NCBI GenBank assembly: GCA_964355955.1
Contig: CAYHFQ010000004.1
Location: forward strand, 1,162-65,161
DNA from: an uncultured Gammaproteobacteria bacterium
Lineage (GTDB): Bacteria > Patescibacteriota > Patescibacteriia > UBA9934
DNA: 64,000 nucleotides
Reading direction: 5' to 3'
In this document: piece after piece, positions 23,968 through 58,048 of the stretch
How positions within the stretch are numbered: the stretch's first letter is position 1
How the letters are laid out: every line of letters starts with the position of its first letter
Position numbers and translations under genes: made by a program
Notes under the pieces: generated by a model
The model's database searches: none
Told to the model about the DNA's origin: nothing
What the model saw: only the letters and a program-made list of their open reading frames with translations

Positions 23968-24431
23968 AGTCAAAACTTATCCCCCGACTTTGCCGACAGC
24001 CGCCGACACGAGAAGTGTAGTATAAACTCGCAGAAAAGTGGCAGTACGTAAAACCTGTCGGTGGGCGTCGACAAGAAATGGCCAGGATGGGCCATTTTTT
24101 GTTTGAGGGAGAATTTTAGTCGAGCTATAGTTTAAGCACGACGTCGACAGAAGGAGACAGCCTACTATCACAAACGTTTGGTAAAAGTCGTGAACATCTA
24201 AATTAGGTAGATGCGAGCGGCACGGTAGCAAAGCGTTGTCATGGTCGGAATGTCTCGGGCCTAGAGAAGACAACTGGGGAGTAGTTTTTCCCTAGGCCTC
24301 GTCGCTTCTGTAAATTTGGTTAATCGAAGAGGTAACACCGCCCTAAGGCTGTTCCGTGAAAGTCATGGACACTCCTAAAGCCAAAGGGATGTGTTGACCA
24401 ATTCCGGTTGACCATCTCAGTGGAGAGTATC

Positions 24432-29142: not shown

Positions 29143-29213
29143 TATTGCTTATGGAGGGGGGTGACATTCGCGGTATTCCAATAGTTAGCCAGTTTTTAAC
29201 GAATGGGGAGTCC

Positions 29214-32260: not shown

Positions 32261-34174
32261 ATGGCTTTTGATGTCGAAAAACTGCAGCAGAGTAAGGTGA
32301 CTGTAGCTGCGCCTAAAGTTCAGCGCGTTTTGTCGCCGCAGGAATTAGCAGCGGCGCAGGAAAGAGTAACGCTTGAAGAAGAGCGAACTTACAGGCGCGG
32401 TGTGGTGTCGATCAGAGATTTGATTGCGCCAGCGGCGTACCAGATTTTTCCTAACTATTTGTTGTTGGGCGATACTTACGTCCGAACGTTGTTTGTGACG
32501 ATGTACCCTCGTTATGTGGGTATTGGTTGGGGGACGCCGATTATCAACTACAACAGTACCATTGATATCGGCATGTTCTTCTATCCAGTAAAACCGGAGA
32601 TTATTTTGAAGCAACTCAAGAATAAAGTAGGTGTACTTTCTGCGCAGATTATTTCTGATAATGAGAAAGGCGCGGCTCGTGACCCGATTCGTGAAACGGC
32701 GTTACGTGATATTGAACAATTGCGCGATGACTTGACGCAAGGCATCGAGCATTTCTTTCAATTTGCTTTTTATGTCACTGTTTACGCCAAGAATAAAGAG
32801 GAACTGGATAAACGATCGGAACAAATTGAAAGTATTTTTGGAACAAAATTAATTTCTAGTAAACGCGGTTTCTATCAGGCGGAGCAGGGCTTTAATTCCA
32901 CCATGCCACTTGGCAATGATGAGTTGATGATTAGCTTTAACATGAATACGTCGCCAATTGCGTCGTCATTCCCATTCACGTCAAGCGATTTGAGTAGCGA
33001 TAATGGTATTTTGTACGGCATTAATAGGCACAATAACTCGCTTATTTTGTTTGACCGTTTTAGCTTGCAGAATGCGAATGCCTTGGTGTTTGCGACTTCT
33101 GGTGCGGGTAAATCTTACACGGTCAAACTGGAAATTTTACGTTCGCTCATGATGGGAACGGACGTGATTGTTATTGACCCGGAAATGGAATACCGACACC
33201 TGAGCGATGCGGTTGGTGGGACGTATGTGAACGTTTCTTTGGCGTCCGATGCGAAGATTAACCCGTTTGATTTGCCACGCAGCAAGGGGGATGAAACGAG
33301 TTCGGAAGATGTTTTGCGAAGTGCGGTGATTACAATTAAGGGCTTGCTCCGGATCATGATTGGGACGCCGCGCGGTGAGAAGAGTCAGCTTGGTTTTACG
33401 CCGGAAGAAGATTCGTTGCTCGACCGGGCGTTGCTTGAAACGTATGCTAAGAAAGATATTACAGCTGATCTGCCTAACTTTATTGGGGTTGAATATCCGG
33501 TGCTGCAAGATTTGCAGGATGTGTTGCAAGGCATGCAAGGAGCAACGGATTTGGTGGCGCGTTTGCAAAAGTATACCGAGGGGACGTTTGCTGGCTTGTT
33601 GAATAGTTTGACGACGGTGGAGATGCGTAACCAGTTGGTTATTTTCTCAGTACGAGATTTGGAGGACGAGTTGCGCCCAATGGCGATTTATACCATCGTT
33701 AACTACATTTGGAATGTGGTGCGCAGTGAACGTAAGAAGCGTATTCTCGTGATCGACGAGGCTTGGTGGCTCATGCAGAATGAAGACTCGGCCAAGTTTA
33801 TTTTTGCGCTAGTCAAGCGAGCGCGTAAGTACTTCCTGGGCGTGACAACGATTACGCAGGATGTGAACGACTTTTTAACCAGTGTTTACGGCCAGGCGAT
33901 TGTGACCAACTCTTCCATGCAGATGTTGCTGAAACAGTCACCAGCGGCGATTGACTTGATTCAGAAGACGTTTAACCTGACAGATAGCGAGAAGTACTTG
34001 TTGCTTGAGAGCGCAGTGGGTGAAGGAATTTTCTTTGCTGGGCAGAAACATGCGGCCATTAAGGTGGTGGCGAGTTATACTGAGGACCAGTTAATTACGA
34101 CGAACCCACAGCAGTTATTGGAGCAAGAGCAAGCTAAAAAACAGTTTGAGAAATCATTAGGCGGCGGCAGTTAG
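32261..34174 (+). CDS. VirB4/TrbE/CagE-family type IV secretion ATPase (C-terminal ATPase segment)
   Basis: Walker A LVFATSGAGKSYTVK and Walker B RILVIDEAWWLM (the DEAW motif typical of VirB4/TraC). Conserved C-terminal TQ...ESAVGEGIFFAG. Confidence 0.7.
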   Translation: MAFDVEKLQQSKVTVAAPKVQRVLSPQELAAAQERVTLEEERTYRRGVVSIRDLIAPAAYQIFPNYLLLGDTYVRTLFVTMYPRYVGIGWGTPIINYNSTIDIGMFFYPVKPEIILKQLKNKVGVLSAQIISDNEKGAARDPIRETALRDIEQLRDDLTQGIEHFFQFAFYVTVYAKNKEELDKRSEQIESIFGTKLISSKRGFYQAEQGFNSTMPLGNDELMISFNMNTSPIASSFPFTSSDLSSDNGILYGINRHNNSLILFDRFSLQNANALVFATSGAGKSYTVKLEILRSLMMGTDVIVIDPEMEYRHLSDAVGGTYVNVSLASDAKINPFDLPRSKGDETSSEDVLRSAVITIKGLLRIMIGTPRGEKSQLGFTPEEDSLLDRALLETYAKKDITADLPNFIGVEYPVLQDLQDVLQGMQGATDLVARLQKYTEGTFAGLLNSLTTVEMRNQLVIFSVRDLEDELRPMAIYTIVNYIWNVVRSERKKRILVIDEAWWLMQNEDSAKFIFALVKRARKYFLGVTTITQDVNDFLTSVYGQAIVTNSSMQMLLKQSPAAIDLIQKTFNLTDSEKYLLLESAVGEGIFFAGQKHAAIKVVASYTEDQLITTNPQQLLEQEQAKKQFEKSLGGGS

Positions 34175-34177
34175 AAC

Positions 34178-34292
34178 TTGCCCAGTTGGCCTATTTTGAG
34201 CTTGTCGCTGCGCCAATCTCTTCACCGCACGCCAAAGTGCGCCTCAGAGACTTGGCTTGCTCCGCACTCAAACTAGTCGCAACTGAACAAGT
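34178..34292. repeat. Family-2 MITE-like repeat, copy E1
   Basis: Imperfect terminal inverted repeats CAGTTGGCCTATTTTG ... CAAACTAGTCGCAACTG. Internal hairpin GCAC-GCCAAA-GTGC. Confidence 0.75.
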
Positions 34293-34309
34293 CCTCCCGA
34301 ATCACTTTA

Positions 34310-34867
34310 ATGTATAATATGCAACGTAAAACTGAAATCATCATTGCTATCATCATCATTGTCGCTTTAGCGATTCTGCTGTTTTTCTGGTTCAACCGAA
34401 CGGTTAAGCAGGCTGCTACGCCAACTAAGGTGACACCTGAGGTGACGACGTCGATTAAGACGACGCCAACTCCGAGTGCAACTGGTATAGCAGTGGCAGC
34501 TCCATCATCGGCTAGTACGGTGGCTCGAGTTTTTGTCGAAAGATTTGGAAGCTATTCGACCGAGTCGGGTTATACGAATATTGATGACGTGATGTCACTG
34601 ACGACAAAAGATTTGCAGGGTCGCTTGCAGAGTTTATTAGAGGCGGCGCAAAAGGAGGCACAGAGTGATTATTACGGTGTCTCGACGCGCTTGATGGGGA
34701 GTAAGACAGAAGTGACGGCTGAAACGTCCATGACGTATAAGATGTCGACGCAACGGCAAGAGTCGTTTGATTCGCCAGCTAATACTTCGGTGAGGTACCA
34801 GGATATTCGAGTTGTGCTGACAAAATCTGGTGATAGTTGGCTCGTAAGCGACTTCACCTGGCTGTAG
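34310..34867 (+). CDS. Bitopic membrane protein (N-terminal TM, ~120-aa extracytoplasmic domain), function unknown
   Basis: IIIAIIIIVALAILLFFWF TM helix then a Thr/Pro linker. Bracketed on both sides by family-2 repeats. Confidence 0.5.
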   Translation: MYNMQRKTEIIIAIIIIVALAILLFFWFNRTVKQAATPTKVTPEVTTSIKTTPTPSATGIAVAAPSSASTVARVFVERFGSYSTESGYTNIDDVMSLTTKDLQGRLQSLLEAAQKEAQSDYYGVSTRLMGSKTEVTAETSMTYKMSTQRQESFDSPANTSVRYQDIRVVLTKSGDSWLVSDFTWL

Positions 34868-34987
34868 AACTTCCTCGGTTGGCCTATTTTGGGCTTGTCG
34901 CTGCGCCAATCTCTTCACCGCACTGCTCTAGTGCGCCTCAGAGACTTGGCTTGCTTCGCACCCAAACTAGTCACAACTGTGAAAGTT
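34868..34987. repeat. Family-2 MITE-like repeat, copy E2
   Basis: About 90% identical to E1. The internal hairpin loop is changed (GCACT-GCTC-TAGTGC). Confidence 0.75.
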
Positions 34988-35005
34988 CTCTAATGATCGA
35001 ATCAT

Positions 35006-35680
35006 ATGTCTGGTTTGGCTGAGCGAGTGCTCGAGGCGGTGTTCCCGAGGTTTTGTGTGAGCTGCCAGCGGGAAGGCGGCTTGTTATGTTTGGCGTGTGA
35101 CGAAGGGTGGAATCCAGAGAGGCCGAGAGTGCTCGAGAGCAAAGATGAGGGAGTTGACTGCGATATTAGCAAGCTGTGGGCGGTGTTGCCGTATGCTAAT
35201 CCGGTGGCGAGGGAGCTGATAACGTCGTGGAAGTACAATTACGATACTTCGGCATGGGCAATATTGCGTCGACGATTGGCGCCACAGATAGCTACATTGA
35301 CGCTGACGTTGGCCATGCATAAGATTGAGGCGATTGTGCCGTTGCCGCTGATGAATCAACGAAGATGCGAAAGGGGGTTCGATCAGTCGGTGGAGATTGC
35401 TGAGTGGCTGAGTAAGTTGACCAACTTGCCGGTGGCTCATTTGTTGGTACGAAAGCATACGGCGGGACACCAAGCAGATAGAACGGTAGACGAAAGATTA
35501 AAAGCGATGATGGCGTCGCCTTTTTCGTTGAGCACCGAGCTTTGTAATGCTATACCTCGAAGGGTTCTGTTGGTGGATGACGTATGGACGACGGGGGCGA
35601 CGATGAGTGCTGGGGCGAGGACGTTGAAGAGTGGGGGAGTAGAGGAGGTTTTTGGGTTTGCATTGGCGAGAGGAAAGTAG
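35006..35680 (+). CDS. comF: ComF family phosphoribosyltransferase-domain competence protein (ComFC-like)
   Basis: N-terminal Cys4 (CVSCQ...CLAC) and a C-terminal PRTase motif VLLVDDVWTTGATM. Confidence 0.7.
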   Translation: MSGLAERVLEAVFPRFCVSCQREGGLLCLACDEGWNPERPRVLESKDEGVDCDISKLWAVLPYANPVARELITSWKYNYDTSAWAILRRRLAPQIATLTLTLAMHKIEAIVPLPLMNQRRCERGFDQSVEIAEWLSKLTNLPVAHLLVRKHTAGHQADRTVDERLKAMMASPFSLSTELCNAIPRRVLLVDDVWTTGATMSAGARTLKSGGVEEVFGFALARGK

Positions 35681-35741
35681 AAATGTGGATAAGTTGTGGG
35701 TAAAGTGGGGAAGAGGTGGGGATAAATAAAGCTGTGGCAAC

Positions 35742-35770
35742 AAAAAATCCAGACAATGTCTGGATGTTTT
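35742..35770. terminator. Bidirectional terminator between comF and tRNA-Ser
   Basis: AAAAAATCCAGACAATGTCTGGATGTTTT. Confidence 0.6.
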
Positions 35771-35858
35771 TGGCGGAGGAGGTGAGATTCGAACTCACGG
35801 TGCCTTGCAGCACGGCGCATTTCAAGTGCGCTGGAATAAACCACTATCCGACTCCTCC
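35771..35858 (-). tRNA. tRNA-Ser (anticodon TGA)
   Basis: The reverse complement folds as a cloverleaf with anticodon loop CTTGAAA, a long variable arm (GTGC-TGCAA-GGCAC), T-loop GTTCGAATC, and CCA encoded. Confidence 0.8.
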
Positions 35859-35924
35859 GAACTCATTTACCCGACTGATGGGTCGACAAAATACTATCTG
35901 AAAAAGAGGTTTTCGTAAAGTACT

Positions 35925-36066
35925 GCTGACTCGATACGACTCGCCGGCGCCTCTCACCTCGTCGACACTCGGTTCGGGCTGGGCACCGCCTCGCCATGCT
36001 CGCTGGTGCTCGCATAAGGCTCCGGCGTTCTCGTCGTGACGCAAGCCAAGCAGTTGGCTTGCTCCG
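35925..36066. repeat. Degenerate composite of family-1 loop motif (TCTCACCTCGTCGACACTCGG) plus an 8-bp hairpin related to family 2 (GCAAGCCA-AGCAGT-TGGCTTGC)
   Basis: GC-rich spacer between two tRNA genes that shares sub-motifs with both repeat families. Confidence 0.4.
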
Positions 36067-36073
36067 GGCGCAA

Positions 36074-36103
36074 CAAAAAAACCCAGCCAAAGCTGGGATT
36101 TTT
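36074..36103. terminator. Terminator downstream of tRNA-Arg (bidirectional hairpin)
   Basis: AAAAAAACCCAGC-CAAA-GCTGGGATTTTTT. Confidence 0.65.
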
Positions 36104-36180
36104 TGGTGCGCCCGGCACGACTCGAACGTACGACCCTCAGCTCCGCAAGCTGATGCTCTATCCAACTGAGCTACGGGCGC
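36104..36180 (-). tRNA. tRNA-Arg (anticodon read as GCG)
   Basis: The reverse complement GCGCCCGTAGCTCAGTTGGATAGAGCATCAGCTTGCGGAGCTGAGGGTCGTACGTTCGAGTCGTGCCGGGCGCACCA folds as a cloverleaf. Anticodon loop TTGCGGA and CCA encoded. Confidence 0.7.
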
Positions 36181-36245
36181 TCGAATAAATAGCAAAGCTA
36201 TTTATGTAAGCATGGATTGAATTCGTTCAAAAAAGTACGAATTGC

Positions 36246-36782
36246 TCAGAGTTTATACAGTCTGGAGAGCATATCTGTCAAGTATTCACGCTCTCTATTG
36301 AGGTTTTCGAAGGCATACGGTAAAAGTGCCTTGCGGACGTCGTTGGGATTCATGTCTTCCAGTGGAACAGTCAAAGTTGGGGCTAAAGAACCATGAAAAG
36401 CCACATAAAGGGTTTTTACATCAGGTGGGTTGTAAATAATTGAAAAATCTCGCACATCCTGATAAGGATAGAAATTATGGCCGAAAACCACGCCACCAGT
36501 AGTTAAGTGAATTTCAACCCTATCTGGCTTACGGATATCACGCATGAGCGTAATAACCGCAAACATGATAATAATCACGGCAAACACGAAGTTCGCTGCG
36601 ATTATTGCATAGAGGAGTAAAGCTAGACCAAGGGTACTAGCAATAATGTACCAACGGCGCGATCGCACCACTGGCGGGTATTCCCAAGTCTCCCAACTAA
36701 GAATGGACGCTCCAGCGTCAATTTTCTCTTTATTCTCTTCCATATTTTGCTTAACTTCAGGCATGTTCATAGTATACCACAC
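36246..36782 (-). CDS. Hypothetical membrane protein (two central TM helices)
   Basis: 178-aa ORF with the hydrophobic core YIIASTLGLALLLYAIIAANFVFAVIIIMFAVI. Confidence 0.45.
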   Translation of the reverse strand: MWYTMNMPEVKQNMEENKEKIDAGASILSWETWEYPPVVRSRRWYIIASTLGLALLLYAIIAANFVFAVIIIMFAVITLMRDIRKPDRVEIHLTTGGVVFGHNFYPYQDVRDFSIIYNPPDVKTLYVAFHGSLAPTLTVPLEDMNPNDVRKALLPYAFENLNREREYLTDMLSRLYKL

Positions 36783-36942
36783 TGGCCCTTGAAAACATCC
36801 GGTTTATAAGCTACCCTAATGAGGCTTTACGAGCCCCCGCCAAGCGCAGCGCAGGCGAGACGAGCGGACCAACGTGCCGCGAGTGAGCGTGAGGTAGTTT
36901 GTTACGCGAACGCGAACGGCAGGCCGTTGCGTCCGCGAGTAC

Positions 36943-37032
36943 GGAGAGGTGGCCGAGTGGCTGAAGGCACAGGTTTGCTAAACCTGCGTACTTGAAAGAG
37001 TACCGGAGGTTCGAATCCTCTCCTCTCCGCCA
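36943..37032 (+). tRNA. tRNA-Ser (anticodon GCT)
   Basis: GGAGAGGTGGCCGAGTGG... with anticodon loop TTGCTAA, a long variable arm, T-loop GTTCGAATC, and CCA encoded. Confidence 0.85.
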
Positions 37033-37034
37033 CG

Positions 37035-37066
37035 AAAAAATGACAGCTTCGGTTGTCGTTTTTTCG
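37035..37066 (+). terminator. Terminator after tRNA-Ser(GCT)
   Basis: GACAGC-TTCG-GTTGTC followed by GTTTTTTCGTTTT. Confidence 0.6.
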
Positions 37067-37122
37067 TTTTAAGGGCTTATCAGATGGCGTGTTTGTTGTT
37101 ATAGTTTCTTTAGGTAATTTCT

Positions 37123-37674
37123 GTGTATATGCGATTGATGAGAAAATCCATCCTGACTGTCGCGGCTGTTAGTTTGTTGCTTGGCTGGTTTGGTCGACCA
37201 ACTGCGGTCTTGGCTTGTTCCTGCGTCTCAGCGACGCCAGCTGAGCATTTTGCTAATGCGACGACTGTGTTTATGGGTACGGTGAAGAATATTTCTGGGG
37301 ATGGCCGGAATGGTCAGAAGAGGCTAGTTGATTTTGCGGTTACTGAAGCACGGAAAGGTATTCTCGATAAAACGGTGACTGTGGCAACTGGTGCGGGTGG
37401 TGGGGATTGCGGCTTCGATTTTCAAGAAGGGCAAGAATATGTGGTTTATGCCTATGATGATGGTGGCAAGTTAGGTACGGGGATTTGCAGCGGTACCGCA
37501 TTAGTTAATGATGCTTCAGATAATGTCGACGAGTCTTTAATGAATAATATTTCCGAAGGGTCGATGGAAGAGGTAGAAGAAGGGAGTAATTTACTAGTCA
37601 CGACTGTGGTTTTAGGGGCTGCCTTTGGTGCCGGAATGTTGATGATGCATTTGTGGGGACGGAGGCGATTATAA
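37123..37674 (+). CDS. Hypothetical secreted/membrane-anchored protein (signal peptide, C-terminal TM)
   Basis: SILTVAAVSLLLGWFGRPTAVLACSC... and a C-terminal LLVTTVVLGAAFGAGMLMMHLWGRRRL, which resembles a sorting or anchor tail. Confidence 0.45.
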   Translation: MYMRLMRKSILTVAAVSLLLGWFGRPTAVLACSCVSATPAEHFANATTVFMGTVKNISGDGRNGQKRLVDFAVTEARKGILDKTVTVATGAGGGDCGFDFQEGQEYVVYAYDDGGKLGTGICSGTALVNDASDNVDESLMNNISEGSMEEVEEGSNLLVTTVVLGAAFGAGMLMMHLWGRRRL

Positions 37675-37680
37675 TAAGTT

Positions 37681-38220
37681 ATGAAAGATGAATATTTAGC
37701 TATTCTTGGTCTTGGTTCCAATGTTGGCGAGCGCGAAAGCTGGCTTAGACAAGCGGTGACTTGTTTACAAGAGATCGCCGGGCTGAGTGATGTTCGCGTC
37801 TCTTCGTTGTACGAGTCGGTGGCGCTTTTGCCGCCAGATGCTCCAGCGGATTGGGATAAGCCTTATTATAATGTGGTTATTAGTGGTAATACATTGTATT
37901 CGCCGCGGCAGTTGTTAGAAATTGTGCAGAAGATTGAAACTATGTTGGGCCGTGAAGAGGATCATCGATATTGGAGTCCAAGAATCATTGACATCGATAT
38001 TTTAGCTTATGGATCCGAAATAGTTAACGAAGATGATCTGGTTATTCCGCATAGGTTTTTAGGTCAACGAGTTTTTACACTTCTGCCATTACTAGAAATT
38101 TTACCTGTTTGGCGATTTCCAATCGGCAGTGAGATGGCGGGAAAAACTGCGAGTCAGGCATATGACGAACTCCCAATTTTGGATAAGCAGAACATTAATA
38201 AGATTGAAAACTTATGGTAA
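37681..38220 (+). CDS. folK: 2-amino-4-hydroxy-6-hydroxymethyldihydropteridine pyrophosphokinase
   Basis: AILGLGSNVGERESWL, IIDIDILAYGSEIV and DLVIPHRF are HPPK motifs. Confidence 0.8.
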   Translation: MKDEYLAILGLGSNVGERESWLRQAVTCLQEIAGLSDVRVSSLYESVALLPPDAPADWDKPYYNVVISGNTLYSPRQLLEIVQKIETMLGREEDHRYWSPRIIDIDILAYGSEIVNEDDLVIPHRFLGQRVFTLLPLLEILPVWRFPIGSEMAGKTASQAYDELPILDKQNINKIENLW

Positions 38221-38999
38221 CGAACGGTTGCTCGCTGGTTGGTATTTTGAATGTTACGCCTGATTCTTTTTCGGACGGGGGAACGTTTGTTGATCCGGAA
38301 GCGGTGGTTGTTAGGGTAGTACAGATGGTCAGTGAGAGGGCGACGGTAATCGATATTGGGGCTGAGTCGACCAGGCCTGGGGCGACGCCGTTAACTCACG
38401 AAGAAGAATGGCTGCGGCTTGAACCGATCTTACGAGCAGTTTTGACTCACGTGGCATGTGAGATTAGTGTTGATACTCGGCACCCGCAAACTGCGGAAAA
38501 GGCTTTGGCGCTAGGGGTACATTGGATAAATGACGTGAGTGGATTTTCTCAGCAGATGGTAGACGTGGTGAAGAATAGCAAATGTCGATTAGTGGTGATG
38601 CATAGTTTGAGTGTTCCGGCACGGAAAGATCTTGTATTTGACGAGACGGTTGACGTTGTAGAAGCGGTGCGTGACTGGTGTTTGGAAAAGTTGGCTATGC
38701 TTGAGCGTCATGGCATAGCTCGCGAACGGATTATATTCGATCCAGGAATTGGGTTTGGGAAGACGGCTGAGCAGTCAATGAAACTGATTGAACGAGTAAG
38801 TTATTTGAAAGTGCCTGGTACACAGTTATTAGTCGGTCATTCCCGTAAATCATTTTTGACAACCCTCGGCATAAAATCGCTGGCCGAGCGTGACGAGGCG
38901 ACGGGGCAACTATCAGCTTTTTTAGCGACTCAGGGGGTCGACTATGTGCGAGTTCACAATGTCGCAGTGAATCGATTGGCGATGAAGATGTTAGTGTAA
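38214..38999 (+). CDS. folP: Dihydropteroate synthase
   Basis: GILNVTPDSFSDGG motif and a pterin-binding TIM-barrel pattern. Overlaps folK by 7 nt. Confidence 0.85.
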   Translation: MVTNGCSLVGILNVTPDSFSDGGTFVDPEAVVVRVVQMVSERATVIDIGAESTRPGATPLTHEEEWLRLEPILRAVLTHVACEISVDTRHPQTAEKALALGVHWINDVSGFSQQMVDVVKNSKCRLVVMHSLSVPARKDLVFDETVDVVEAVRDWCLEKLAMLERHGIARERIIFDPGIGFGKTAEQSMKLIERVSYLKVPGTQLLVGHSRKSFLTTLGIKSLAERDEATGQLSAFLATQGVDYVRVHNVAVNRLAMKMLV

Positions 39000-39031
39000 T
39001 ACTATAGCTAGGAGTAGGATAATGATTAAAT

Positions 39032-39361
39032 ATGATCGATTGTTTAGATTTAACAGCCGAAGAGTTTGCTACTCTTGAACGGGCTAGTCAGGAGCGCGTG
39101 CCTGTTTTAGTTAACGGTCGGGAAGTGCTGCTCAAGCCTTTTAATGCTGAAAAAGAACACGTTCATTCAGACTGTGGCAGCTGTCCAGATGAGATGATGA
39201 TGGACGAAGTTGGTGGCAAGGCTTGTTTAGCGGCTTCCAGAGATGTCGACGAGGAAACTTGGCGCGTCCATGCTATGCGACCGTTGCTGTGGGGTTGGTT
39301 TGGTTATTTGGGGAGTAGTTTGCGAACGTTGAGTGTTGGTGGACGGGAGTTAGGAAGATAA
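39032..39361 (+). CDS. Hypothetical small protein
   Basis: 109-aa ORF with no recognised motif. Confidence 0.3.
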   Translation: MIDCLDLTAEEFATLERASQERVPVLVNGREVLLKPFNAEKEHVHSDCGSCPDEMMMDEVGGKACLAASRDVDEETWRVHAMRPLLWGWFGYLGSSLRTLSVGGRELGR

Positions 39362-39431
39362 TAAAAGAGCGCGTCCCGTCGAACAAGGATGCCGACGGTC
39401 GGCGCCTCTTATTTCGCGGAACGCGCGAGCG

Positions 39432-40010
39432 CTATTTTGTCTGCAGATCTTGCATCTTCCTGTGCACGGCCATTCCGAGAAGGCTTAGTTGCAGTGTTTC
39501 GACGGGATCTTCGTCTTTATCTAGCACCTCGTTGCTGGCTGCGATGATCAGGTATTTATCCAACAATGCCAGAGGTTTCTGTACTTGACGTCGATTTATT
39601 GTGGGGGTACTCCCGATGAAGTGCTTGACGATGGTACTCCTGGGAATCCGTTGGCCGTAATAACCATAGAACCAGTTGAGCAGCGCGTAGATCGTCTGAG
39701 CGTTGCGTCGGCTCATCAGGTCTTTGACAATGGCCGTCGCCCTGGCGTCAAATTGCGCGCGCTGTATGCCTTCTGCCAGGCCTAGGATTCGGCCAAGTTG
39801 TTCGGAGGCTGCAACGGATGGTGATGGTACGTCTATACGAGCTCGAAAGAGAGTGACTACTGCTTGGAGGTATTCTTGCATGAATGGTGTCTCGAACGAA
39901 CCTGTGAGCAGGCTACCGATCATTTGTCGTCTTTCTCGATGCGCTACGTCTGTATCTTCCCAGAGCTTATATAGACTCTGGACGAAACTTGGTAGATCTT
40001 GTTCTGTCAC
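39432..40010 (-). CDS. Hypothetical protein
   Basis: 192-aa ORF, convergent with the upstream gene, with no recognised motif. Confidence 0.4.
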   Translation of the reverse strand: MTEQDLPSFVQSLYKLWEDTDVAHRERRQMIGSLLTGSFETPFMQEYLQAVVTLFRARIDVPSPSVAASEQLGRILGLAEGIQRAQFDARATAIVKDLMSRRNAQTIYALLNWFYGYYGQRIPRSTIVKHFIGSTPTINRRQVQKPLALLDKYLIIAASNEVLDKDEDPVETLQLSLLGMAVHRKMQDLQTK

Positions 40011-40141
40011 CTTGACTCCCGTGTCGACGTTGCCCGGTATGGGTAATTGTCGACTAAGAACCTTACAGCGGTAGAATACTTAAGTCAATCAACTCGAATA
40101 TATGCTATACTTTTAGTATTAGATGTCATCAGTATTTTAGT

Positions 40142-40663
40142 ATGGGAGAGATTGTTATCCGTATCCCTTGGAATAAGAAGATAATCAAGCGCGTAGTTAT
40201 TGGCTTGTTGATTGCCTTGCCGATTGTTTATATTTTGGTCATGCATGGTGCGGAGAAATACATTAACGTTATACAGAGAAGTGCGATTTGTGACTTATGT
40301 GAACCAAGTGGAAATAACACCGAGTCTAGCTGGATTGTCACCCTGCGGCATGATTTGCCGTTTGAGAGTAAATATGGCCAGAGATATGAGGTGTGCTTGG
40401 ATCAGATTCATTTAGAGCGAGTCTATGTTCGTAATAGTAGCGGTGGATTTGATTCGAGTAGAGCGTATTTTAATAAGGACGGTGAGGCGATGGGTACTTG
40501 GAGTAGTGATGATACCGGACAGGCTTACCAAAATGGAGAGTATGTCGGTAGCATAATAGACGAAGTAAATCCGGCTAAAGATTTGTTTAGAGAGAGTCTT
40601 TGGAACTGTAAGAGGGTGCCGGCTTGGTTTTTTAATATGAAGGTAGATGTTAGCTCTTCTTGA
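40142..40663 (+). CDS. Hypothetical protein with N-terminal TM anchor
   Basis: VVIGLLIALPIVYILVM, followed by a Cys-containing soluble domain. Confidence 0.4.
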   Translation: MGEIVIRIPWNKKIIKRVVIGLLIALPIVYILVMHGAEKYINVIQRSAICDLCEPSGNNTESSWIVTLRHDLPFESKYGQRYEVCLDQIHLERVYVRNSSGGFDSSRAYFNKDGEAMGTWSSDDTGQAYQNGEYVGSIIDEVNPAKDLFRESLWNCKRVPAWFFNMKVDVSSS

Positions 40664-40675
40664 GACTATTCTGTT

Positions 40676-41317
40676 GTGGTAGGATCATTTTGTATGAATG
40701 ATTTTTTACGCGAGACTATACGGTTTTATAACGATTATGCCGATTCTTTTGAGGAGAAAACAAAGAATAAGCAAAAGCGAGAATGGCTTGATCGATTTGT
40801 AGCGGCCTTGCCAGCAAAAGGCGAAGTTCTTGATTTGGGCTGTGCTTATGGTCGCGACTTGCGAACTTTTGTGGATCTTGGATTGAGTGCAGTAGGAATT
40901 GATGGATCCGAGGTGATGGTTGGCAAGGCACAAGAACTTGTCCCTGAGGCCAAAGTTATGGTCGGCGATGTGCGGAAGTTGCCATTCAATGTTGAACAAT
41001 TTGTTGGAGTTTGGGCGTCGAATATTTTTGTTCATTTGCCAAAGAGCGATATGCCAGCTGCTCTTAAGGGGATTGCAGATTGTCTTGTAACTGATGGCGT
41101 GCTTTACGGGTCGTTATATCTTGGGGACTCGGAAGGCATGGAAGAAGATTCGCGCTACGAAAATGCTGCAAAATATTATTCATATTTTACGGAGGAGGAA
41201 ATTCGTAAGCTCTTAAGCGATGCTGGCTTTGAGATAGTGGCTTTTGAACCGAGGGATAAAGATGAATATGAGAGGGCGGATATTCTTGAGTTTTTGGCGA
41301 AGAAAATGTCGATGTAG
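40676..41317 (+). CDS. Class I SAM-dependent methyltransferase
   Basis: Motif I VLDLGCAYGRDL and motif post-I AVGIDGSEVMV. The first ATG is at 40694. Confidence 0.7.
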   Translation: MVGSFCMNDFLRETIRFYNDYADSFEEKTKNKQKREWLDRFVAALPAKGEVLDLGCAYGRDLRTFVDLGLSAVGIDGSEVMVGKAQELVPEAKVMVGDVRKLPFNVEQFVGVWASNIFVHLPKSDMPAALKGIADCLVTDGVLYGSLYLGDSEGMEEDSRYENAAKYYSYFTEEEIRKLLSDAGFEIVAFEPRDKDEYERADILEFLAKKMSM

Positions 41318-41443
41318 ACGGGTGGTGAAGTATTGACGATGCATGGCGAGGTGAAGATTATCGGCTAGGGTGAAGCTGGACAAAAAGGGGGATTAATGCT
41401 ACAAAACCCCCTTATTCTTGCTTGGGAAGTCCAATAAACCTGT

Positions 41444-42436
41444 ATGAAACGTCAACTATTCGCGGTTTTGTTGAGTGTGATTGTGGTAGTAATGCCAGTG
41501 ACGCAGGCAGAGGCGGCGTCGACGGACGGCCGAATATTGCTGGCGGTTGAGAGCCATGGCGAGACTTGGTATGTTGATCCGGTGACGAGTGAACGTAGTT
41601 TTTTGAATCATGGTGCGGGCTTGGTGGCGGTAATTCCGACTGTAGCGCTTGGTATTAGTAATGCGGATATTTGGCGCATTCCGGTGGGTGTTTTGGTGCC
41701 ACTTAAGGGCGAGGTAGATGCCGACCATGATGGTTTAACGAATCAAATGGAACAGGCTTTGGGTACATATTCTGGGAGCGCCGATACCGATCATGACGGT
41801 TATAGCGACGGTGTTGAATTCAGCAATAACTACACGCCGTTTGGAGCTGGCAAGATTCCCGTCGATACCGCGTTGGTGAATCGCTTGAAAGGTCGCATTC
41901 TCTTGCAGGTGGAGGGTAGAGGTGAAGCCTGGTATTTGAATCCGACTGATGGCAGACGTTACTTTATTGGTAATGCGGATGAGGCTGACCGTTTGATCAC
42001 CATGTTTAGCTTGGGGATTACGAATGCTGACTTGGCGAAGATTGCGGTTAGCGCCGAGTCTGATGTGCCAGGTTGTGAGAGTTCGTGGAGTTTGTTTACG
42101 AGTGAGGAAGTGAGCTTCTGTTACCCAACTGGTGTAGTGGTACAGAGTCGGGGGGATAGCGAATTTGTAAATACAGAAATATTGGTGGCTAAAGCGACTG
42201 GTAATTTAACTACACAAGAAATGGTTAGCATGCCAGAGAGTTACGGCGTGGCTAAAACTTATAATGGAATTGCTGGCGTAGAGTTTACTGACGCAGGCTA
42301 TGGCGCCATAAGTGCTTTTGTTTTCCAGATCGGAGGCAAGACGTATTCCATTGTCGAGGCTAAGCCTTTGTCACAGCGAGAGTTAACGATTACTGAGTGG
42401 CAGCAGATGCTCGGCTCTTTGATTATCTCACAATAA
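41444..42436 (+). CDS. Secreted protein with duplicated module (ILLAVESHGETWYVDP / ILLQVEGRGEAWYLNP) and TSP3-like Asp-rich linker
   Basis: Signal peptide MKRQLFAVLLSVIVVVMPVTQAEA. The internal ~130-aa duplication is linked by DADHDGLTNQ...DTDHDGYSDG. Confidence 0.55.
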   Translation: MKRQLFAVLLSVIVVVMPVTQAEAASTDGRILLAVESHGETWYVDPVTSERSFLNHGAGLVAVIPTVALGISNADIWRIPVGVLVPLKGEVDADHDGLTNQMEQALGTYSGSADTDHDGYSDGVEFSNNYTPFGAGKIPVDTALVNRLKGRILLQVEGRGEAWYLNPTDGRRYFIGNADEADRLITMFSLGITNADLAKIAVSAESDVPGCESSWSLFTSEEVSFCYPTGVVVQSRGDSEFVNTEILVAKATGNLTTQEMVSMPESYGVAKTYNGIAGVEFTDAGYGAISAFVFQIGGKTYSIVEAKPLSQRELTITEWQQMLGSLIISQ

Positions 42437-42458
42437 ATAGAAGTAGTTCGGTTGCGCA

Positions 42459-42486
42459 TAAATCCCTATTAAGTTAGGGATTTTGT
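42459..42486. terminator. Hairpin terminator
   Basis: ATCCCTA-TTAAGT-TAGGGAT followed by TTTGTG. Confidence 0.55.
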
Positions 42487-42521
42487 GTTATAGTGAAGGT
42501 GCCTAACGGCAAGGAGCCAAC

Positions 42522-42929
42522 ATGAATCGAGAACGTGCTAGTCGGCCAGAGTGTGCGGTGTGTGAGGTGATTGATTTTGGAGATTACCATAGTTACGGGC
42601 TTTTTCCGGAACGGGTGTGTACCCTCCGCTTTCGCTATCCACGAGCAGCGCCGCCACGTTGGTTGGTCAGTTTGATCGGGACCGAAGAGGACAGGGGAGA
42701 AGAGGTGACGGAAACACCGAGAAGCCTGTGGAGGGACGACGAAGTGAGCTTTCGAGTAGTTCGTCTGCTGCCTCCGCCGGCAGCTGGCTGGCTGCTCGAG
42801 ACCTGTCAACACGAGGTTTTCAACTGGGGAGCACATGAGCAACGTCTGGTTGTGATGGTGGTTCCGGAAGGGGATCGTCGTAGAGGGATCGTCATGGCTG
42901 AAGCCACCTGGCAGGAGTGCTACAAGTAA
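42522..42929 (+). CDS. Small hypothetical protein in locally GC-rich segment (strand ambiguous)
   Basis: AAGGAG Shine-Dalgarno 6 nt upstream of the ATG. An overlapping antisense ORF runs 42474-42989 on the minus strand. Confidence 0.3.
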   Translation: MNRERASRPECAVCEVIDFGDYHSYGLFPERVCTLRFRYPRAAPPRWLVSLIGTEEDRGEEVTETPRSLWRDDEVSFRVVRLLPPPAAGWLLETCQHEVFNWGAHEQRLVVMVVPEGDRRRGIVMAEATWQECYK

Positions 42930-43022
42930 TGAGGCGTCGTCTTGGCTCGATCTTACCGAAAGGTGAGGTCGAGCTTTACATTTTTTCAAAATCTGTCATA
43001 ATGGCGCGGATAATATACGCCT

Positions 43023-45095
43023 ATGGCTTGTCTCAGCCAAGAAATTTCCATGTTGCGCGGAGTCGGTGCGATTAAGGCGCGCGATTTTGCTAGGTTGGGT
43101 TTAAAGACGCTGGAAGAAGCGTTGTATGACTTTCCTTTTAGGTACGACGACTTGAGCAACGTCTTGGCGATTGCTGAGGTAAAAGCCGGCATGAAAGTGA
43201 CGGTACAGGGTCGGATTAGCACGATTGAGAACCGTAAAAGCACGCAATCACGACGGATGATGGTAACGGAGGCGATCGTGGAAGATGGTAGTGGCACGAT
43301 TAAAGCGACTTGGTTTCACCAAGGTTTTTTGACGAAAGTTTTGAAGCCGGGCGTGATTGTTTCTTTGGCTGGTAAAGTTGATGACCGTTACGGGTTGTCT
43401 TTAGTGAACCCGGCTTACGAGATAGTTGGTAAGTCTTCCACAACCAGTAATACTGGGCGAATTGTGCCGATTTATCGCTTGACTGGTGCATTGACGCAGA
43501 AGGCTCGTCGATTAGTCGCGGAGAAGGCGATCGTGTGCGTGCCGGAGGTGGCCGAATGGATGCCGGAATATATTAAGACGGATTTGCGTTTGCAACCGCT
43601 CGGCGCAGCACTCCGCGAAATGCATTTTCCAGAGTCGACGGAAACTAAGGATAAAGCGATTTATAGGTTGAAGTTTGACGAGTTCTTGTTGCACCAGTTA
43701 TTGCACGCCAAGTCACGTCGCGATTTGCAAAAGCAAAAAGCGCCGAAGATTGCTTTTAACGAACGTGAGGTGAAATCGGCGATTAGTGAACTGCCGTTTA
43801 CGTTGACGGGAGCGCAGAAGAAGGCGGTGTGGGCGATTATTAAGGACATGGACCGCACGGAGCCAATGAACCGTTTACTTGAAGGTGACGTAGGTAGCGG
43901 TAAAACGGCAGTGGCGGCACTCGTGGCTGTAAACGCAGCGGCTGATGGTTGGCAGACTTCCATGTTGGCCCCGACCGAAATTTTGGCTGAACAGCATGCC
44001 AAGACGTTGGAACGCTTGCTGGGGAGTCGCTTAAGGATTGCGCTTTACACGAGGACCAAACGCCGAATTCACGGTAAAGAGGTGACGAAGGAGGAATTGC
44101 TCAAGGCCTTGCGTAACGGCGAGGTTGATTTAGTGGTAGGTACTCATGCTCTGCTCACCGAGCAAGTTTTGTTCTTGCGTTTGGGATTGATTGTGGTCGA
44201 CGAACAGCACAGGTTCGGCGTGAAGCAACGTCAGGCTTTGAAGGACAAACAAGGGGATAAAGATGGTATCCCGCACTTGCTCTCCATGACGGCGACACCG
44301 ATTCCACGTTCATTGGCGTTGGTGGTTTATGGCGATTTGGACCGATCGTTGCTCGACGAATATCCAGCCGGACGTCAGCCGATTGATACGCATATTGTCG
44401 ACGTTGGTCGCGAGAATGAGGCTTATGCGAAGATGCGACTCGACATGGATAATGGCCGACAGGTTTTTGTGGTCTGTCCGTTGATTGAGGAGAGCGATGC
44501 ACTGGGTGTGCAGAGCGTGAATGAAGTATTTAGTAGTTTTAGTGAAGGTCCGTTTGCTGGTTACCGCTTGGCGATGTTGCACGGTAAGCTGAAGACTAAG
44601 GAAAAAGATGGTGTGATGCGCGCGTTTGCAGCTGGGGAGTTTGATATGTTGATTGCGACCACGGTTGTTGAAGTCGGCATTGACGTGCAGAACGCGACCA
44701 TTATGTACGTGGAAGGTGCGGAACGGTTTGGTTTGGCGCAGTTGCACCAGTTGCGTGGTCGAGTAGGACGTGGTGAGCACGGTAGTCATTGTTACTTGCA
44801 TGCCAGTGCAATGCTCTCGCCGATGGCTAAGGAACGTTTGTTGGCGCTTGTGAACAGCCAGGATGGCTTCGAGCTGGCGGAAGCTGACTTGCGCTTGCGT
44901 GGGCCAGGTGATGTGTTCGGTACACGGCAGAGTGGCTTTGAGGAGTTTAAGCTTGGCACGTATGCGGATATTGATGTGATCAGCAAGGCTAAGGATTTTG
45001 CTAAGGAGTTGTTGGACCAAGATATTGATCTCAAACAATATCCAAAACTACGCGAAAGGATGATGGCTTATGCGCAAGAAGTTCACTTTGAATAA
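43023..45095 (+). CDS. recG: ATP-dependent DNA helicase RecG
   Basis: Wedge-domain N-terminus, helicase motif I GDVGSGKTAVAAL, and DEQHRFGV. Confidence 0.9.
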   Translation: MACLSQEISMLRGVGAIKARDFARLGLKTLEEALYDFPFRYDDLSNVLAIAEVKAGMKVTVQGRISTIENRKSTQSRRMMVTEAIVEDGSGTIKATWFHQGFLTKVLKPGVIVSLAGKVDDRYGLSLVNPAYEIVGKSSTTSNTGRIVPIYRLTGALTQKARRLVAEKAIVCVPEVAEWMPEYIKTDLRLQPLGAALREMHFPESTETKDKAIYRLKFDEFLLHQLLHAKSRRDLQKQKAPKIAFNEREVKSAISELPFTLTGAQKKAVWAIIKDMDRTEPMNRLLEGDVGSGKTAVAALVAVNAAADGWQTSMLAPTEILAEQHAKTLERLLGSRLRIALYTRTKRRIHGKEVTKEELLKALRNGEVDLVVGTHALLTEQVLFLRLGLIVVDEQHRFGVKQRQALKDKQGDKDGIPHLLSMTATPIPRSLALVVYGDLDRSLLDEYPAGRQPIDTHIVDVGRENEAYAKMRLDMDNGRQVFVVCPLIEESDALGVQSVNEVFSSFSEGPFAGYRLAMLHGKLKTKEKDGVMRAFAAGEFDMLIATTVVEVGIDVQNATIMYVEGAERFGLAQLHQLRGRVGRGEHGSHCYLHASAMLSPMAKERLLALVNSQDGFELAEADLRLRGPGDVFGTRQSGFEEFKLGTYADIDVISKAKDFAKELLDQDIDLKQYPKLRERMMAYAQEVHFE

Positions 45096-45220
45096 AAAAT
45101 CACCGAGTTGGCCTATTTTCGTCTCACAACTGCACAAATCTTTTTCAACTTAGCACCAACTAAGCTTCAAAATATTTGTTTGTTGTTCAACGAAACTAGT
45201 CTCAACTGGGTGGTTTTTTT
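45096..45220. repeat. Family-2-related MITE-like element, copy E3 (between convergent recG and radA)
   Basis: Ends GAGTTGGCCTATTTTCG ... CGAAACTAGTCTCAACTGGG, flanked by an A-run and a T-run. The interior has diverged. Confidence 0.55.
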
Positions 45221-45228
45221 AAATACAA

Positions 45229-46512
45229 TTATTTACTCAATACTTCGCTAATATTTTTTATTGTTTTGGGGGTGAGGAGAGTGTGACAACCGAGGCGTTC
45301 GGCTTCTTTGAGGCGGCGGTCCAAGAAGGGGACGGAGCGAATTTCACCGCCGAGACCAAGTTCTCCAATGACGACGGCGTCTTTGGGGAGGGCGACGTTT
45401 TTGATGGCGGAAAGAATGGCGGCAGCGACAGCTAGATCCGCGGCCTTCTCCGTAATCTTCATGCCGCCGACGACGTTAACGTAGACGTCCAAGTCGCCAG
45501 TGCGGGCGCCGCAGCGTTTGCTTAAAATGGCGAGGAGCATTTGCAGACGGCTGGCGTCGAAACCGCTGGTACGGCGAACGGGGTTGGCGAAGAGCGACTT
45601 GTCGACGAGGGCCTGAACTTCGAGCAGGAATGGCCGACTACCTTCCATGATGCAGGTAACGACGGAACCGGCGCCGGCGACACGCTCGGCTAAGAACTTG
45701 GCGGAGGGATTCTCCACAGCCATCATGCCGTTCTCGGTCATTTCGAAAACGCCAACTTCGTCTGTGCTGCCAAAACGGTTCTTGGTACTGCGGAGGATGC
45801 GGTAGGAGGAATCAGGGTCGCCTTCGAGCGTGAGGAGGGTGTCGACTAAATGCTCCATGGTTTTGGGGCCAGCAATGCCGCCATCTTTAGTGACTTGGCC
45901 GATGATGAGGACGGGCACGTTGCTGCTTTTGGCGTAGTTGATGAGTTCGCTCGTAGCAGCCCGGACGGCGTTTGGGGTGCCAGGGTAGGCCTCGAGACCG
46001 TCGACCATCATGGTCTGGATGGAGTCGATGATGAGGAGACTTGGTTTTTGAGTTTTGGCGGCCGCTAAAATACTGCCGATTTCTACGGCATTACTGAACA
46101 TGATGGATTCTGGGGGCAGGCCGAGGCGGTTAAAGCGCAAGAGAACTTGACCTTCGGATTCTTCGCCGGAGACGTAGTAAGTGAGACCAGGAATGGCGTG
46201 AGCCAGCTGAGCGACGAGGGTTGATTTACCAATACCAGGTTCGCCAGCGAGCAGAGTGACGGAACCGGCCACGAGGCCACCGGAGAGCACGCGGTCTAGT
46301 TCCGAGAGGCCACTTGGCGTGCGGCTGACTTGAGCCTTGCTGGCCGCGCTCAAGGCGAGGACGGGAGCTGGTTTGGCTTTGGTCGAAGTGAGACTCGGAG
46401 CTTTACCTGGTGCCGTACCGCCTTCTTCGCTTAACGTGCCCCAACCGCCGCATTCGGTGCAACGGCCTTGCCATTTACTGTATTGGTAGTCGCATTTTGA
46501 ACAGGAGAACAT
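45229..46512 (-). CDS. radA: DNA repair protein RadA/Sms
   Basis: N-terminal zinc finger CSKCDYQYSKWQGRCTECGGW, Walker A LLAGEPGIGKST, and a Lon-like C-terminus. Confidence 0.9.
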   Translation of the reverse strand: MFSCSKCDYQYSKWQGRCTECGGWGTLSEEGGTAPGKAPSLTSTKAKPAPVLALSAASKAQVSRTPSGLSELDRVLSGGLVAGSVTLLAGEPGIGKSTLVAQLAHAIPGLTYYVSGEESEGQVLLRFNRLGLPPESIMFSNAVEIGSILAAAKTQKPSLLIIDSIQTMMVDGLEAYPGTPNAVRAATSELINYAKSSNVPVLIIGQVTKDGGIAGPKTMEHLVDTLLTLEGDPDSSYRILRSTKNRFGSTDEVGVFEMTENGMMAVENPSAKFLAERVAGAGSVVTCIMEGSRPFLLEVQALVDKSLFANPVRRTSGFDASRLQMLLAILSKRCGARTGDLDVYVNVVGGMKITEKAADLAVAAAILSAIKNVALPKDAVVIGELGLGGEIRSVPFLDRRLKEAERLGCHTLLTPKTIKNISEVLSK

Positions 46513-57883: not shown

Positions 57884-58027
57884 TTCACTCTCAACCGTCA
57901 TGTTTCCTATTCCTAGCTGCACCTCGTCAACCGCACCACCCGTCTCACCTCGTCTGACTCGGGCGGTGGCGCAGGGCCGAGGTTGGCGTCGTCATAGGAG
58001 ACAATGACAGTTGTTCGTTTAGATCGG
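57884..58027 (+). repeat. Family-1 structured intergenic repeat, copy C
   Basis: Carries TTCCTAGCTGCACCTCGTCAACCG...GTCTCACCTCGTCTGACTCGGG...CAGGGCCGAGGTTGGCGTCGTCATAGGAGACA. The outer stem covaries (TCCTAT/ATAGGA versus CTCCTGT/ACAGGAG). Confidence 0.8.
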
Positions 58028-58048
58028 TAAAGAAGTAAAATTGTTTGT

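Follow-up and report, generated by a model that had tools for sequence, protein, structure and literature searches.

Family-2, a short foldback repeat of probable mobile type with a covarying hairpin in Candidatus Uhrbacteria

The window, a stretch of 64,000 nt of contig CAYHFQ010000004.1 from a very small bacterium of groundwater (Candidatus Uhrbacteria), holds three copies, E1, E2 and E3, of a short repeat family which we call Family-2. E1 and E2 abut both ends of a small gene in a type IV secretion system (T4SS) operon, and E3 lies between recG and radA. An earlier note on this DNA had reported the three copies; all of them were found in the places given there, all on the + strand. The elements and the adjoining genes are listed below. 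Bit scores refer to a covariance model (CM) which was built from eight copies and run with filters off; MFE is the minimum free energy, and z-scores compare the fold with dinucleotide shuffles. Loci outside the window are cited by L numbers.

34172-34296, + strand: E1, full Family-2 element; CM match 129.1 bits; MFE -46.8 kcal/mol, z -4.7
34175-34197, + strand: conserved 5' arm of E1, AACTTGCCCAGTTGGCCTATTTT; columns unchanged or almost so when 8 or 10 copies are aligned
34270-34294, + strand: conserved 3' arm of E1, AAACTAGTCGCAACTGAACAAGTCC; AAACTAGTCnCAACTG is exact in 3 of 3 window copies
34865-34990, + strand: E2, full Family-2 element; CM match 131.4 bits; 87% identity to E1; MFE -50.6 kcal/mol, z -5.7
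34868-34890, + strand: 5' arm of E2, equivalent to that of E1; the equivalent 3' arm starts at 34964
45094-45219, + strand: E3, diverged Family-2 element at the recG/radA junction; CM match 125.7 bits; MFE -41.1 kcal/mol, z -7.0
45097-45119, + strand: 5' arm of E3, equivalent to that of E1; the equivalent 3' arm starts at 45193
32261-34174, + strand: virB4/traC-like ATPase gene, directly upstream of E1; Pfam P-loop_TraG (1.8e-29), AAA_10, DUF87
34319-34867, + strand: VirB8-like bitopic protein gene between E1 and E2; 35 homologues, some with PF04335
35006-35680, + strand: comF-like phosphoribosyltransferase-domain gene downstream of E2; weak Pfam Pribosyltran and DZR_2 matches, syntenic in relatives
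43023-45095, + strand: recG, ending at E3; RecG_wedge, DEAD, Helicase_C and RecG_dom3_C on syntenic orthologues
45229-46512, - strand: radA, convergent on E3; RadA homologues, Pfam tables of syntenic loci

The genes around E1 and E2 form the row PrgI / TraC-like / VirB4 / VirB8-like / ComF. E1 opens with the stop codon of the virB4-like gene (TAG, 34172-34174), and E2 with that of the VirB8-like gene (TAG, 34865-34867); E2 ends 15 nt ahead of the comF-like start codon. The two elements are direct repeats abutting both ends of one small gene, for which the start at 34310 assumed previously should most likely be moved to 34319, the start shared with homologues. E3 overlaps the TAA stop of recG (45093-45095). 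That it lies between convergent recG and radA genes was confirmed, both identities being upheld by the Pfam tables of syntenic loci. A recoding signal at the UAG, with a hairpin of the PYLIS or SECIS kind, was rejected on inspecting the sequence, as the read-through frames end differently (E1 at the conserved CTAG, the L004 copy in the apical loop).

E1 and E2 had been described as about 90% identical, which agrees with the 87% measured across the full alignment of the element and the 89-93% of its ungapped blocks; their apical loops differ in the way that was described. E3 is the more diverged copy, with 57% overall identity both to E1 and to E2, and has exact AGTTGGCCTATTTT and AAACTAGTCnCAACTG ends. 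When up to 3 mismatches are allowed, these two words are more numerous in the window than in each of 100 shuffles. The terminal inverted repeats (TIRs) that had been noticed are present, but the bounds originally drawn were too short: the inverted repeat reaches outward by another 10 nt or so at either end (TAGAACTT.../...AAGTTCT). In E1 the 3' outer arm is degenerate, with AAGTCCTC in place of AAGTTCTA, and in E3 the outer stem is replaced by AAAAAATCACC/GGTGGTTTTTTT. The unit is 125-127 bp long. No reading frame across it is kept from copy to copy, given the different centres and the insertions and deletions in the apical loops.

Each copy folds into a single long imperfect hairpin with the energies listed above. 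The consensus consists of TA, GAACTTnCnCAGTTGGCCTATTTT, about 75 variable nucleotides, AAACTAGTCnCAACTGnnnAAGTTC and again TA; GAACTTnCnCAGTTGGCCTATTTT pairs with AAACTAGTCnCAACTGnnnAAGTTC, and the pairs of these TIRs are invariant or covary. RNAalifold likewise yields one hairpin with 42-43 pairs. In the alignment of eight copies 96.1% of the paired cells can pair (82.5 +/- 1.2 when shuffled), changes have occurred on both sides in 22 of 42 pairs, and none of 500 shuffles reached the observed pairing or covariation score. When the pairing register is slid by 1-3 columns, just 31-46% of the cells pair. Between loci, identity is 70-96% at the ends and 39-75% in the centres, and even the nearly invariant stem covaries, AGTTG/CAACT having become ATTTG/CAAAT in the copy of L035. 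These paired substitutions show that compensatory change preserves the hairpin in the central part of the element. Certain positions are unpaired in every copy, namely a bulged U and a bulged N in the 3' arm and C/U and U/C mismatches; a CU.../...CA internal loop and a UCAn/CYUY loop under the apical stem are likewise fixed in all copies.

The hairpin is also built of modules. E1 of the window genome and E1 of L007 agree in every base of the lower stem, over roughly 2 x 34 nt, but have wholly different apical stems. One apical type, GCAC...GTGCG, is common to E1, E2, the E2 copy of L034 and the copy upstream of the M23 peptidase in L035; a second one, CTTAG...CTAAG, is common to E3, L003, L004 and the E1 copy of L007. 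Since these types are common to different loci, they point to exchange between copies, by copying or conversion.

In the window the three copies score 126-131 bits with the CM and nothing else reaches 19 bits. No further copy was found in the 10 kb on either side of the window or in a further 20 kb of the window species. One and the same CM recognizes ten copies at seven intergenic loci in six genomes with 117-142 bits (E-values of about 1e-31 to 1e-39). Among relatives it revealed a new full copy in L035 (L035:6-131; 116.9 bits) and an internally deleted E2 in L034 (L034:8465-8563; 58.6 bits). An exact-pattern scan of one genome per GTDB species gave 7 matches, three of which are due to chance (among them those in Colwellia and Bathyarchaeia) and four of which are real; the latter belong to four different Candidatus Uhrbacteria metagenome-assembled genomes (MAGs). 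Metagenome contigs contained the pattern CCTATTTTN{60,88}AAACTAGTCNCAAC at 12 loci, all chance matches with the hairpin in none, and the pattern scan of viral contigs gave 0 matches. Exact patterns miss variants such as the L035 copy (ATTTGG/CAAAT), so that copy number and taxonomic range are lower bounds. So far, Family-2 is confined to one clade of Candidatus Uhrbacteria.

Besides the E1, E2 and E3 sites, the occupied loci lie between xerC and rpsO-pnp, between cobA and a DUF4178 gene, between an unknown gene and ftsW, and upstream of an M23 peptidase gene (L035). Four of the seven loci are in or beside the T4SS/comF/recG/radA region, a bias due in part to the way in which the loci were retrieved. 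Copies between co-directional genes are all oriented with transcription. In other samples of the window species E2 is identical, and the contigs break inside it. The short-read assemblies L032:1, L033:1 and L042:1 break at a 31-mer common to E1 and E2 or inside E1. As Family-2 copies fragment assemblies, they can be expected to be under-represented in MAGs. Rfam 15 has no family for E1/E2 or for E3, either at gathering thresholds or at E<=10; the window's sole matches at gathering thresholds are three tRNAs. Likewise, a literature search on MITEs (short for miniature inverted-repeat transposable elements) or REPs (repetitive extragenic palindromes) in the candidate phyla radiation (CPR)/Patescibacteria gave nothing relevant and nothing on Family-2. 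A bacterial Y RNA was considered and rejected: Rfam Y_RNA and YrlA are unmatched, and the multi-copy placement overlapping stop codons does not fit. We regard Family-2 as an undescribed, though fairly ordinary, small repeat of the foldback kind that belongs to no named family.

The elements could be taken for ordinary terminator hairpins that resemble each other by chance or through common descent of neighbouring spacers. E3, between convergent genes, comes close to this: it is flanked by A- and T-runs as had been observed (A6 and T7), with T7 after the stem on the + strand and T6 on the - strand. The terminator scan is silent here, stem and loop being over its limits. Some hairpin is present at the recG/radA junction in every relative. 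In L020 a RAYT-like gene stands there between two 35-nt GC hairpins of the REP type, L023 has one 35-nt GC hairpin, and L021 has a different GC-rich palindrome. The idea that E3 doubles as a bidirectional terminator is plausible in view of these runs. For the family as a whole, however, the terminator explanation is contradicted and extremely improbable. E1 and E2 are followed by no T-run and lie inside an operon; the ordinary terminators nearby, as found by the terminator scan, are short GC stems followed by T-runs; identical 14-16-nt ends recur at unrelated loci in four other Uhrbacteria species; and the CM E-values given above are far from chance. For E1 and E2, without a T-run and within an operon, a processing site or a barrier to 3'-exonucleases is likelier than a terminator.

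The occupancy of the sites was compared among relatives, whose relationships were judged by amino-acid identity over the VirB4 C-terminus, the VirB8-like protein and ComF. L034 and L020 form a trio with the window genome (about 91% identity to it), followed by L035/36 (89%), L039 (84%), L007/L040 (80%) and L021 (71%). E1 is intact in the window genome and in L007/L040. In L035 a 21-nt 5' remnant, TAGGACTTGCTCAGTTGGCCTC, is fused to the 3' flank, the junction being at a short direct repeat (CCT...CCT), and L034, L020, L039 and L021 lack E1, with 3-17 nt between the virB4 and virB8-like genes. Only two of these genomes have E2, the window genome and L034, the latter minus about 29 alignment columns of the 5' arm (the 58.6-bit copy); it is absent from L020, L036, L039, L007 and L021, where the flanking genes are 2-45 nt apart. 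E3 is found in the window genome and in L007 (L007:1927-2052). Conversely, the site in the window (24274-24407) orthologous to the M23-peptidase-upstream site of L035 has no copy. The E1 copy of L007 together with the remnant in L035 implies that E1 is older than the clade and was deleted several times. E2, which in sequence is near to E1 of this genome, is an additional copy of later date and the clearest gain. Over its history the unit was thus copied into several spacers between genes and repeatedly deleted.

These data bear on two proposals of the earlier note. It had described the repeats as a MITE-like family with TIRs, and with seven intergenic loci in six genomes, filled and empty sites and TA at most termini this description holds; had there been only these three copies, with identical spacing in relatives, conserved regulatory hairpins would have been favoured, but further copies exist and the spacing varies. 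It had also suggested that a cassette was inserted, or that the repeats recombined and so caused a duplication, because two direct repeats of 87% identity abut both ends of a small gene. This second proposal had to be given up. The order virB4-virB8like-comF is kept in L007/L040, L020, L021, L034, L035/36 and L039, and the VirB8-like protein of the six relatives shares 51-88% amino-acid identity. The gene occupies this same place whether a relative has E1 only (L007), E2 only (L034), a remnant of E1 (L035) or neither element (L020, L021, L039); it is a VirB8-like part of the surrounding T4SS operon, and no second copy of it is present in the window. We give the cassette almost no credence. The VirB8-like gene is a resident part of the T4SS operon, and the elements came and went around it.

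The termini give a hint of how the elements may have arrived. TA stands directly outside GAAC...GTTC (or its equivalent in E3) at both ends in 6 of 10 copies (L004, L007_E1, L007_E3, L035, L034_E2 and E3) and 3 others have it at one end; in the window, 5.1% of dinucleotides are TA. At E1, E2 and L004, this TA and the first G of the element form the stop codon of the upstream gene. Those E2 empty sites with directly comparable sequence (L020, L036, L007) have TAA at the same codon, and removal of the element together with one TA leaves a TAA or TAG stop in L007_E1, L004 and E3, the empty sites being too diverged for a base-exact comparison. We infer that the elements inserted into the TA of a stop codon and restored the stop themselves. 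An element would land on this TA, and its first base, usually G, would rebuild the stop (TA+G). By this means it could enter the few-nucleotide spacers of a compact operon without damage.

Once inserted, the copies did not evolve neutrally. When the window genome is compared with L007, identity is 48-52% at the four-fold degenerate sites of recG, radA and virB4; orthologous Family-2 copies are 79-89% identical. E3 and its ortholog in L007 are 89% identical overall and 95% in the centre, with one compensatory change from U-A to C-G. Recent recombination importing E3 was considered and rejected, as the coding DNA flanking it is 77-88% identical throughout, flat across recG-radA, with no local identity peak; RecG itself has 95% amino-acid identity to its L007 orthologue. 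Orthologous copies thus lie far above four-fold sites, which shows that the hairpin, and at some loci the sequence, is under selection and not in neutral decay. At the same time, relatives live without E1 and E2, so that the elements are dispensable. The compensating centre and the conserved orthologous copies are unlike simple decaying transposon debris, which would show neither. Both features had been overlooked in the first reading of the sequence.

Such conservation would be expected if Family-2 were a cis-acting structured RNA of the host, which is not mobile but old and vertically inherited with losses, with a host factor, RNase III for instance, that binds or cuts it. The hairpin would then tune the expression of type IV secretion, competence and recombination genes. 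Strong covariation, conserved internal loops and bulges, the conservation of orthologous E1 and E3 far above four-fold sites, and the L035 remnant, which makes E1 older than the divergence of these genomes, are all in favour of this explanation, as are the four loci out of seven in or beside the T4SS/comF/recG/radA region and the consistent orientation of copies between co-directional genes. However, the enrichment in this region partly reflects the fetching of the loci, and the other loci (xerC and rpsO-pnp, cobA and DUF4178, the unknown gene and ftsW) are functionally unrelated. E2 is an additional copy of one lineage that resembles E1 of its own genome in sequence, and in L020, L021, L034 and L039 the genes do without elements at distances of 2-17 nt. 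In addition, the apical modules common to different loci within the clade indicate copying or conversion, and G.U pairs are nearly absent. On balance we consider a purely host-derived RNA unlikely.

The near absence of G.U pairs is part of a wider pattern. Watson-Crick pairs account for 361 of 378 cells, and G.U and A.C occupy 3 cells each; with 3 G.U against 3 A.C cells there is no signal for the strand that folds, nor for RNA versus DNA. One may ask whether the repeats are sites for recombination or transposition as folded single-stranded DNA, similar to attC or to IS200/REPIN ends, with a tyrosine or HUH enzyme reading the basal module and ignoring the variable stem. Pairing that is almost exclusively Watson-Crick, with wobbles free of strand bias, would fit such a site, and so would the architecture, with conserved paired ends, fixed unpaired bases and a centre constrained only in structure. 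The attC sites of the Vibrio cholerae repeats are imperfect hairpins of 57-141 nt in which structure is conserved over sequence (Nivina et al. 2016, PMC5027507). As in attC, Family-2 has fixed unpaired bases near the stem base and an AAC...GTT outer box: in most copies the outer 5' arm carries AAC and the outer 3' arm GTT. It stands directly after open reading frames and can flank a gene on both sides, as E1 and E2 do, and the same junctions are used by RAYT/REP insertions in relatives.

Against this, no integrase, other tyrosine recombinase or HUH gene is present in the window and its 10-kb flanks. The sole nearby recombinase (L002) is XerC/D-like and scores 131.9 bits on the integron-integrase model, the cut-off of which is 265. 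Compared with the R boxes of attC (RYYYAAC/GTTRRRY), the outer boxes of Family-2 read (T)AGAAC/GTTCT(A), so that TAGAAC/GTTCTA does not fit and just the AAC/GTT triplets agree; E3 of the window lacks even these. There is no IntI, no attI and no cassette array, never more than two copies in a row, and housekeeping genes flank some of the copies. Relatives without the sites have the bracketed gene in its place all the same, and the RAYTs of these genomes are flanked by other hairpins. A folded single-stranded DNA site is very unlikely on these grounds. An integron attC site in the strict sense was rejected: integrase, R-box consensus and array are absent and the flanked VirB8-like gene stays put, so the likeness is structural only. 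A bolder idea is that Family-2, perhaps with the Family-1 hairpins described below, represents a new kind of structure-specific CPR element, in which a constant basal module (extrahelical bases, pyrimidine mismatches) and a Watson-Crick variable stem would together form the folded DNA or RNA substrate of a dedicated enzyme. This would parallel attC/IntI or REPIN/RAYT with a different partner, whose machinery would exchange the apical modules. We regard this as a long shot.

REPINs are defined by conserved inverted ends and a variable, compensating spacer (PMC3116915, Bertels & Rainey 2011). In Family-2, too, the spacer is defined by its length and by hairpin formation, with frequent compensatory changes. 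Copies are long-lived at orthologous sites, their decay leaves remnants and singlets, and the genomes do hold RAYTs. Unlike in REPINs, the ends form no conserved local REP palindrome (the AACT(N5)AGTT mini-hairpin is lost in E3 and L035), and the RAYTs are flanked by other hairpins, not by Family-2. The notion that Family-2 is the REPIN of local RAYTs was rejected for this reason: at L020, L037 and L039 the RAYTs stand between other, 35-nt GC-rich hairpins, and the 20-kb RAYT locus L037 has no Family-2 match. The RAYT-like Y1 transposase genes at L020:11310-12101 and L037:9829-10625 are below the Pfam/NCBIfam cut-offs and are flanked by CAAGTCCCGGnC...GnCCGGGACTTG hairpins. Such hairpins also occur alone, at L023:5650-5690 and, in the window genome just past the window, at L026:20944-20978. 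The DnaA-box-like word TTATCCACA adjoins the hairpin at the L020 and L037 RAYT loci and at the solo copy in L023. At L039:1509-2125 a Y1_Tnp gene of a second type (186 aa) lies between the M23 peptidase gene and the next gene of the T4SS cluster and is flanked by TCAACCCTTAG...CTAAGGGTTGA hairpins.

Taken together, we consider it probable that Family-2 is a mobile-type foldback repeat of the bacterial MITE, ERIC or REPIN kind whose hairpin is under selection. Bacterial MITEs are known for their small size of under 200 bp without coding capacity, TIRs with TA termini, a long stem-loop formed between the 5' and 3' ends and effects on adjacent mRNAs (PMC2229807, Delihas 2008). Family-2 resembles the enterobacterial repeat ERIC/IRU (RU-1, 127 bp), Correia/NEMIS and RUP, which are non-coding, have about 100-150 bp and TIRs with 5'-TA-3' termini. 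As in ERIC and MITEs, the whole unit is one stem-loop, it occupies transcribed spacers by stop codons, and there are filled and empty sites. It differs from them in having no sequence similarity, in its host from the Patescibacteria/CPR lineage, in not being A+T-rich, in an apparently low copy number and in having no known insertion sequence with matching ends; moreover, its centre goes down to 39-75% identity and is nevertheless 96% paired, and its internal loops are conserved.

Several observations weigh against such a mobile origin. E1 and E2, with GC contents of 53.6% and 52.4%, do not have the A+T-richness by which bacterial MITEs are recognized (E3 has 35.7%, the window 49.6%). The copy number is low, three in the roughly 104 kb sampled of the 1.09-Mb genome, all within 11 kb. 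About 330 kb of related sequence contain no transposase gene with the same ends, and the window contains neither a recombinase nor a transposase. The RAYT of the window species that was found by homologue search (P0161, L037:10001-10591) is flanked by AACAAGTCCCGGACTCCAGGAGTCCGGGACTTG 35-nt hairpins. At the insertion site, TA is self-complementary, so that a target-site duplication is indistinguishable from an inverted repeat longer by 2 bp, and the E2 junction of L034 (GTTC TA TAATAATCG) cannot be cleanly reduced to a TAA stop. That orthologous copies are so well conserved is more in keeping with a host function than with a selfish repeat, and with 3 G.U and 3 A.C of 378 cells the stem carries no strand-specific RNA signature, so that the hairpin may also form at the DNA level.

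The most likely sequence of events under a mobile-type origin is as follows. Family-2 would have spread as a non-autonomous foldback element, mobilized by an enzyme that is encoded elsewhere or is no longer present. After insertion, the host would tolerate or keep an element, since its transcribed hairpin does no harm or is of use. Co-transcribed with its neighbours, it would give a long, nearly perfect RNA hairpin. An action of such RNA hairpins on mRNAs has been proposed for Correia elements, via RNase III, and for ERIC, via RNase E and stability (PMC2229807). In the virB4-virB8like-comF operon the hairpins of E1 and E2 would most likely serve as a processing site or exonuclease barrier, as proposed there for Correia and ERIC. 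In E3 the outer stem would have been turned into A6...T7, and the same hairpin could work as a two-way terminator. The fold, and at some loci the sequence too, is under selection, which keeps the surviving copies intact. Repeated related intergenic hairpins with conserved internal loops in polycistronic transcripts are also represented by the phage T7-type RNase III hairpins and the REP 3' stabilisers. The likeness to these is an analogy of mechanism only. The specific RNA roles of the hairpins are accordingly a tentative suggestion, about half as probable in our view as the mobile-type origin itself.

CPR/Patescibacteria genomes have about 1 Mb, are tightly packed and are usually called poor in repeats and mobile DNA. 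The present genome nevertheless holds a well-defined foldback repeat, long kept at some sites and lost at others. The catalogues of RNA motifs and of mobile elements gain a family with unusually clean covariation that is absent from Rfam. For annotation, E1 and E2 are a caution that a gene between two repeats need not be a cassette. Should the hairpins process or stabilise the mRNA of the operon, they would count among the earliest proposals of cis-acting RNA elements in the T4SS/competence region of CPR.

A second repeat, Family-1, which is unrelated to Family-2, was seen in the same window. It consists of GC-rich hairpins of about 145 nt on the + strand at 4317-4463, 4838-4984, 57886-58032 and 60451-60597, and occurs also at L026:13737-13876 and L040:2819-2947, with apparent compensatory differences between copies. 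Two of its copies flank groES (about 4548-4835) in the way that E1 and E2 flank the VirB8-like gene. It has no match in Rfam and reaches 15-18 bits on the Family-2 CM, purely as long hairpins.

Some further observations concern the neighbouring genes. The last 133 residues of the VirB4-like protein (gene 32261-34174) are 100% identical between the window and L007:7601-7999 at about 48% identity of four-fold sites, which implies very strong purifying selection on this protein. Between the tRNA cluster and recG, about 5 kb of the window (37123-42436; HPPK/folK, folP, a methyltransferase and genes of no family) have no match in L007; by this comparison, the segment is a variable region between related genomes. 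Finally, a GC hairpin word, TAATAGGCGGGG...CCCCGCC, is repeated at 29875-29903, 29940-29966, 30423-30449, 50791-50817 and 56657-56685. Three of these copies lie inside the gene of a 642-aa protein of the T4SS cluster (29145-31073), where they encode the repeated peptide KRGTVTPPI.

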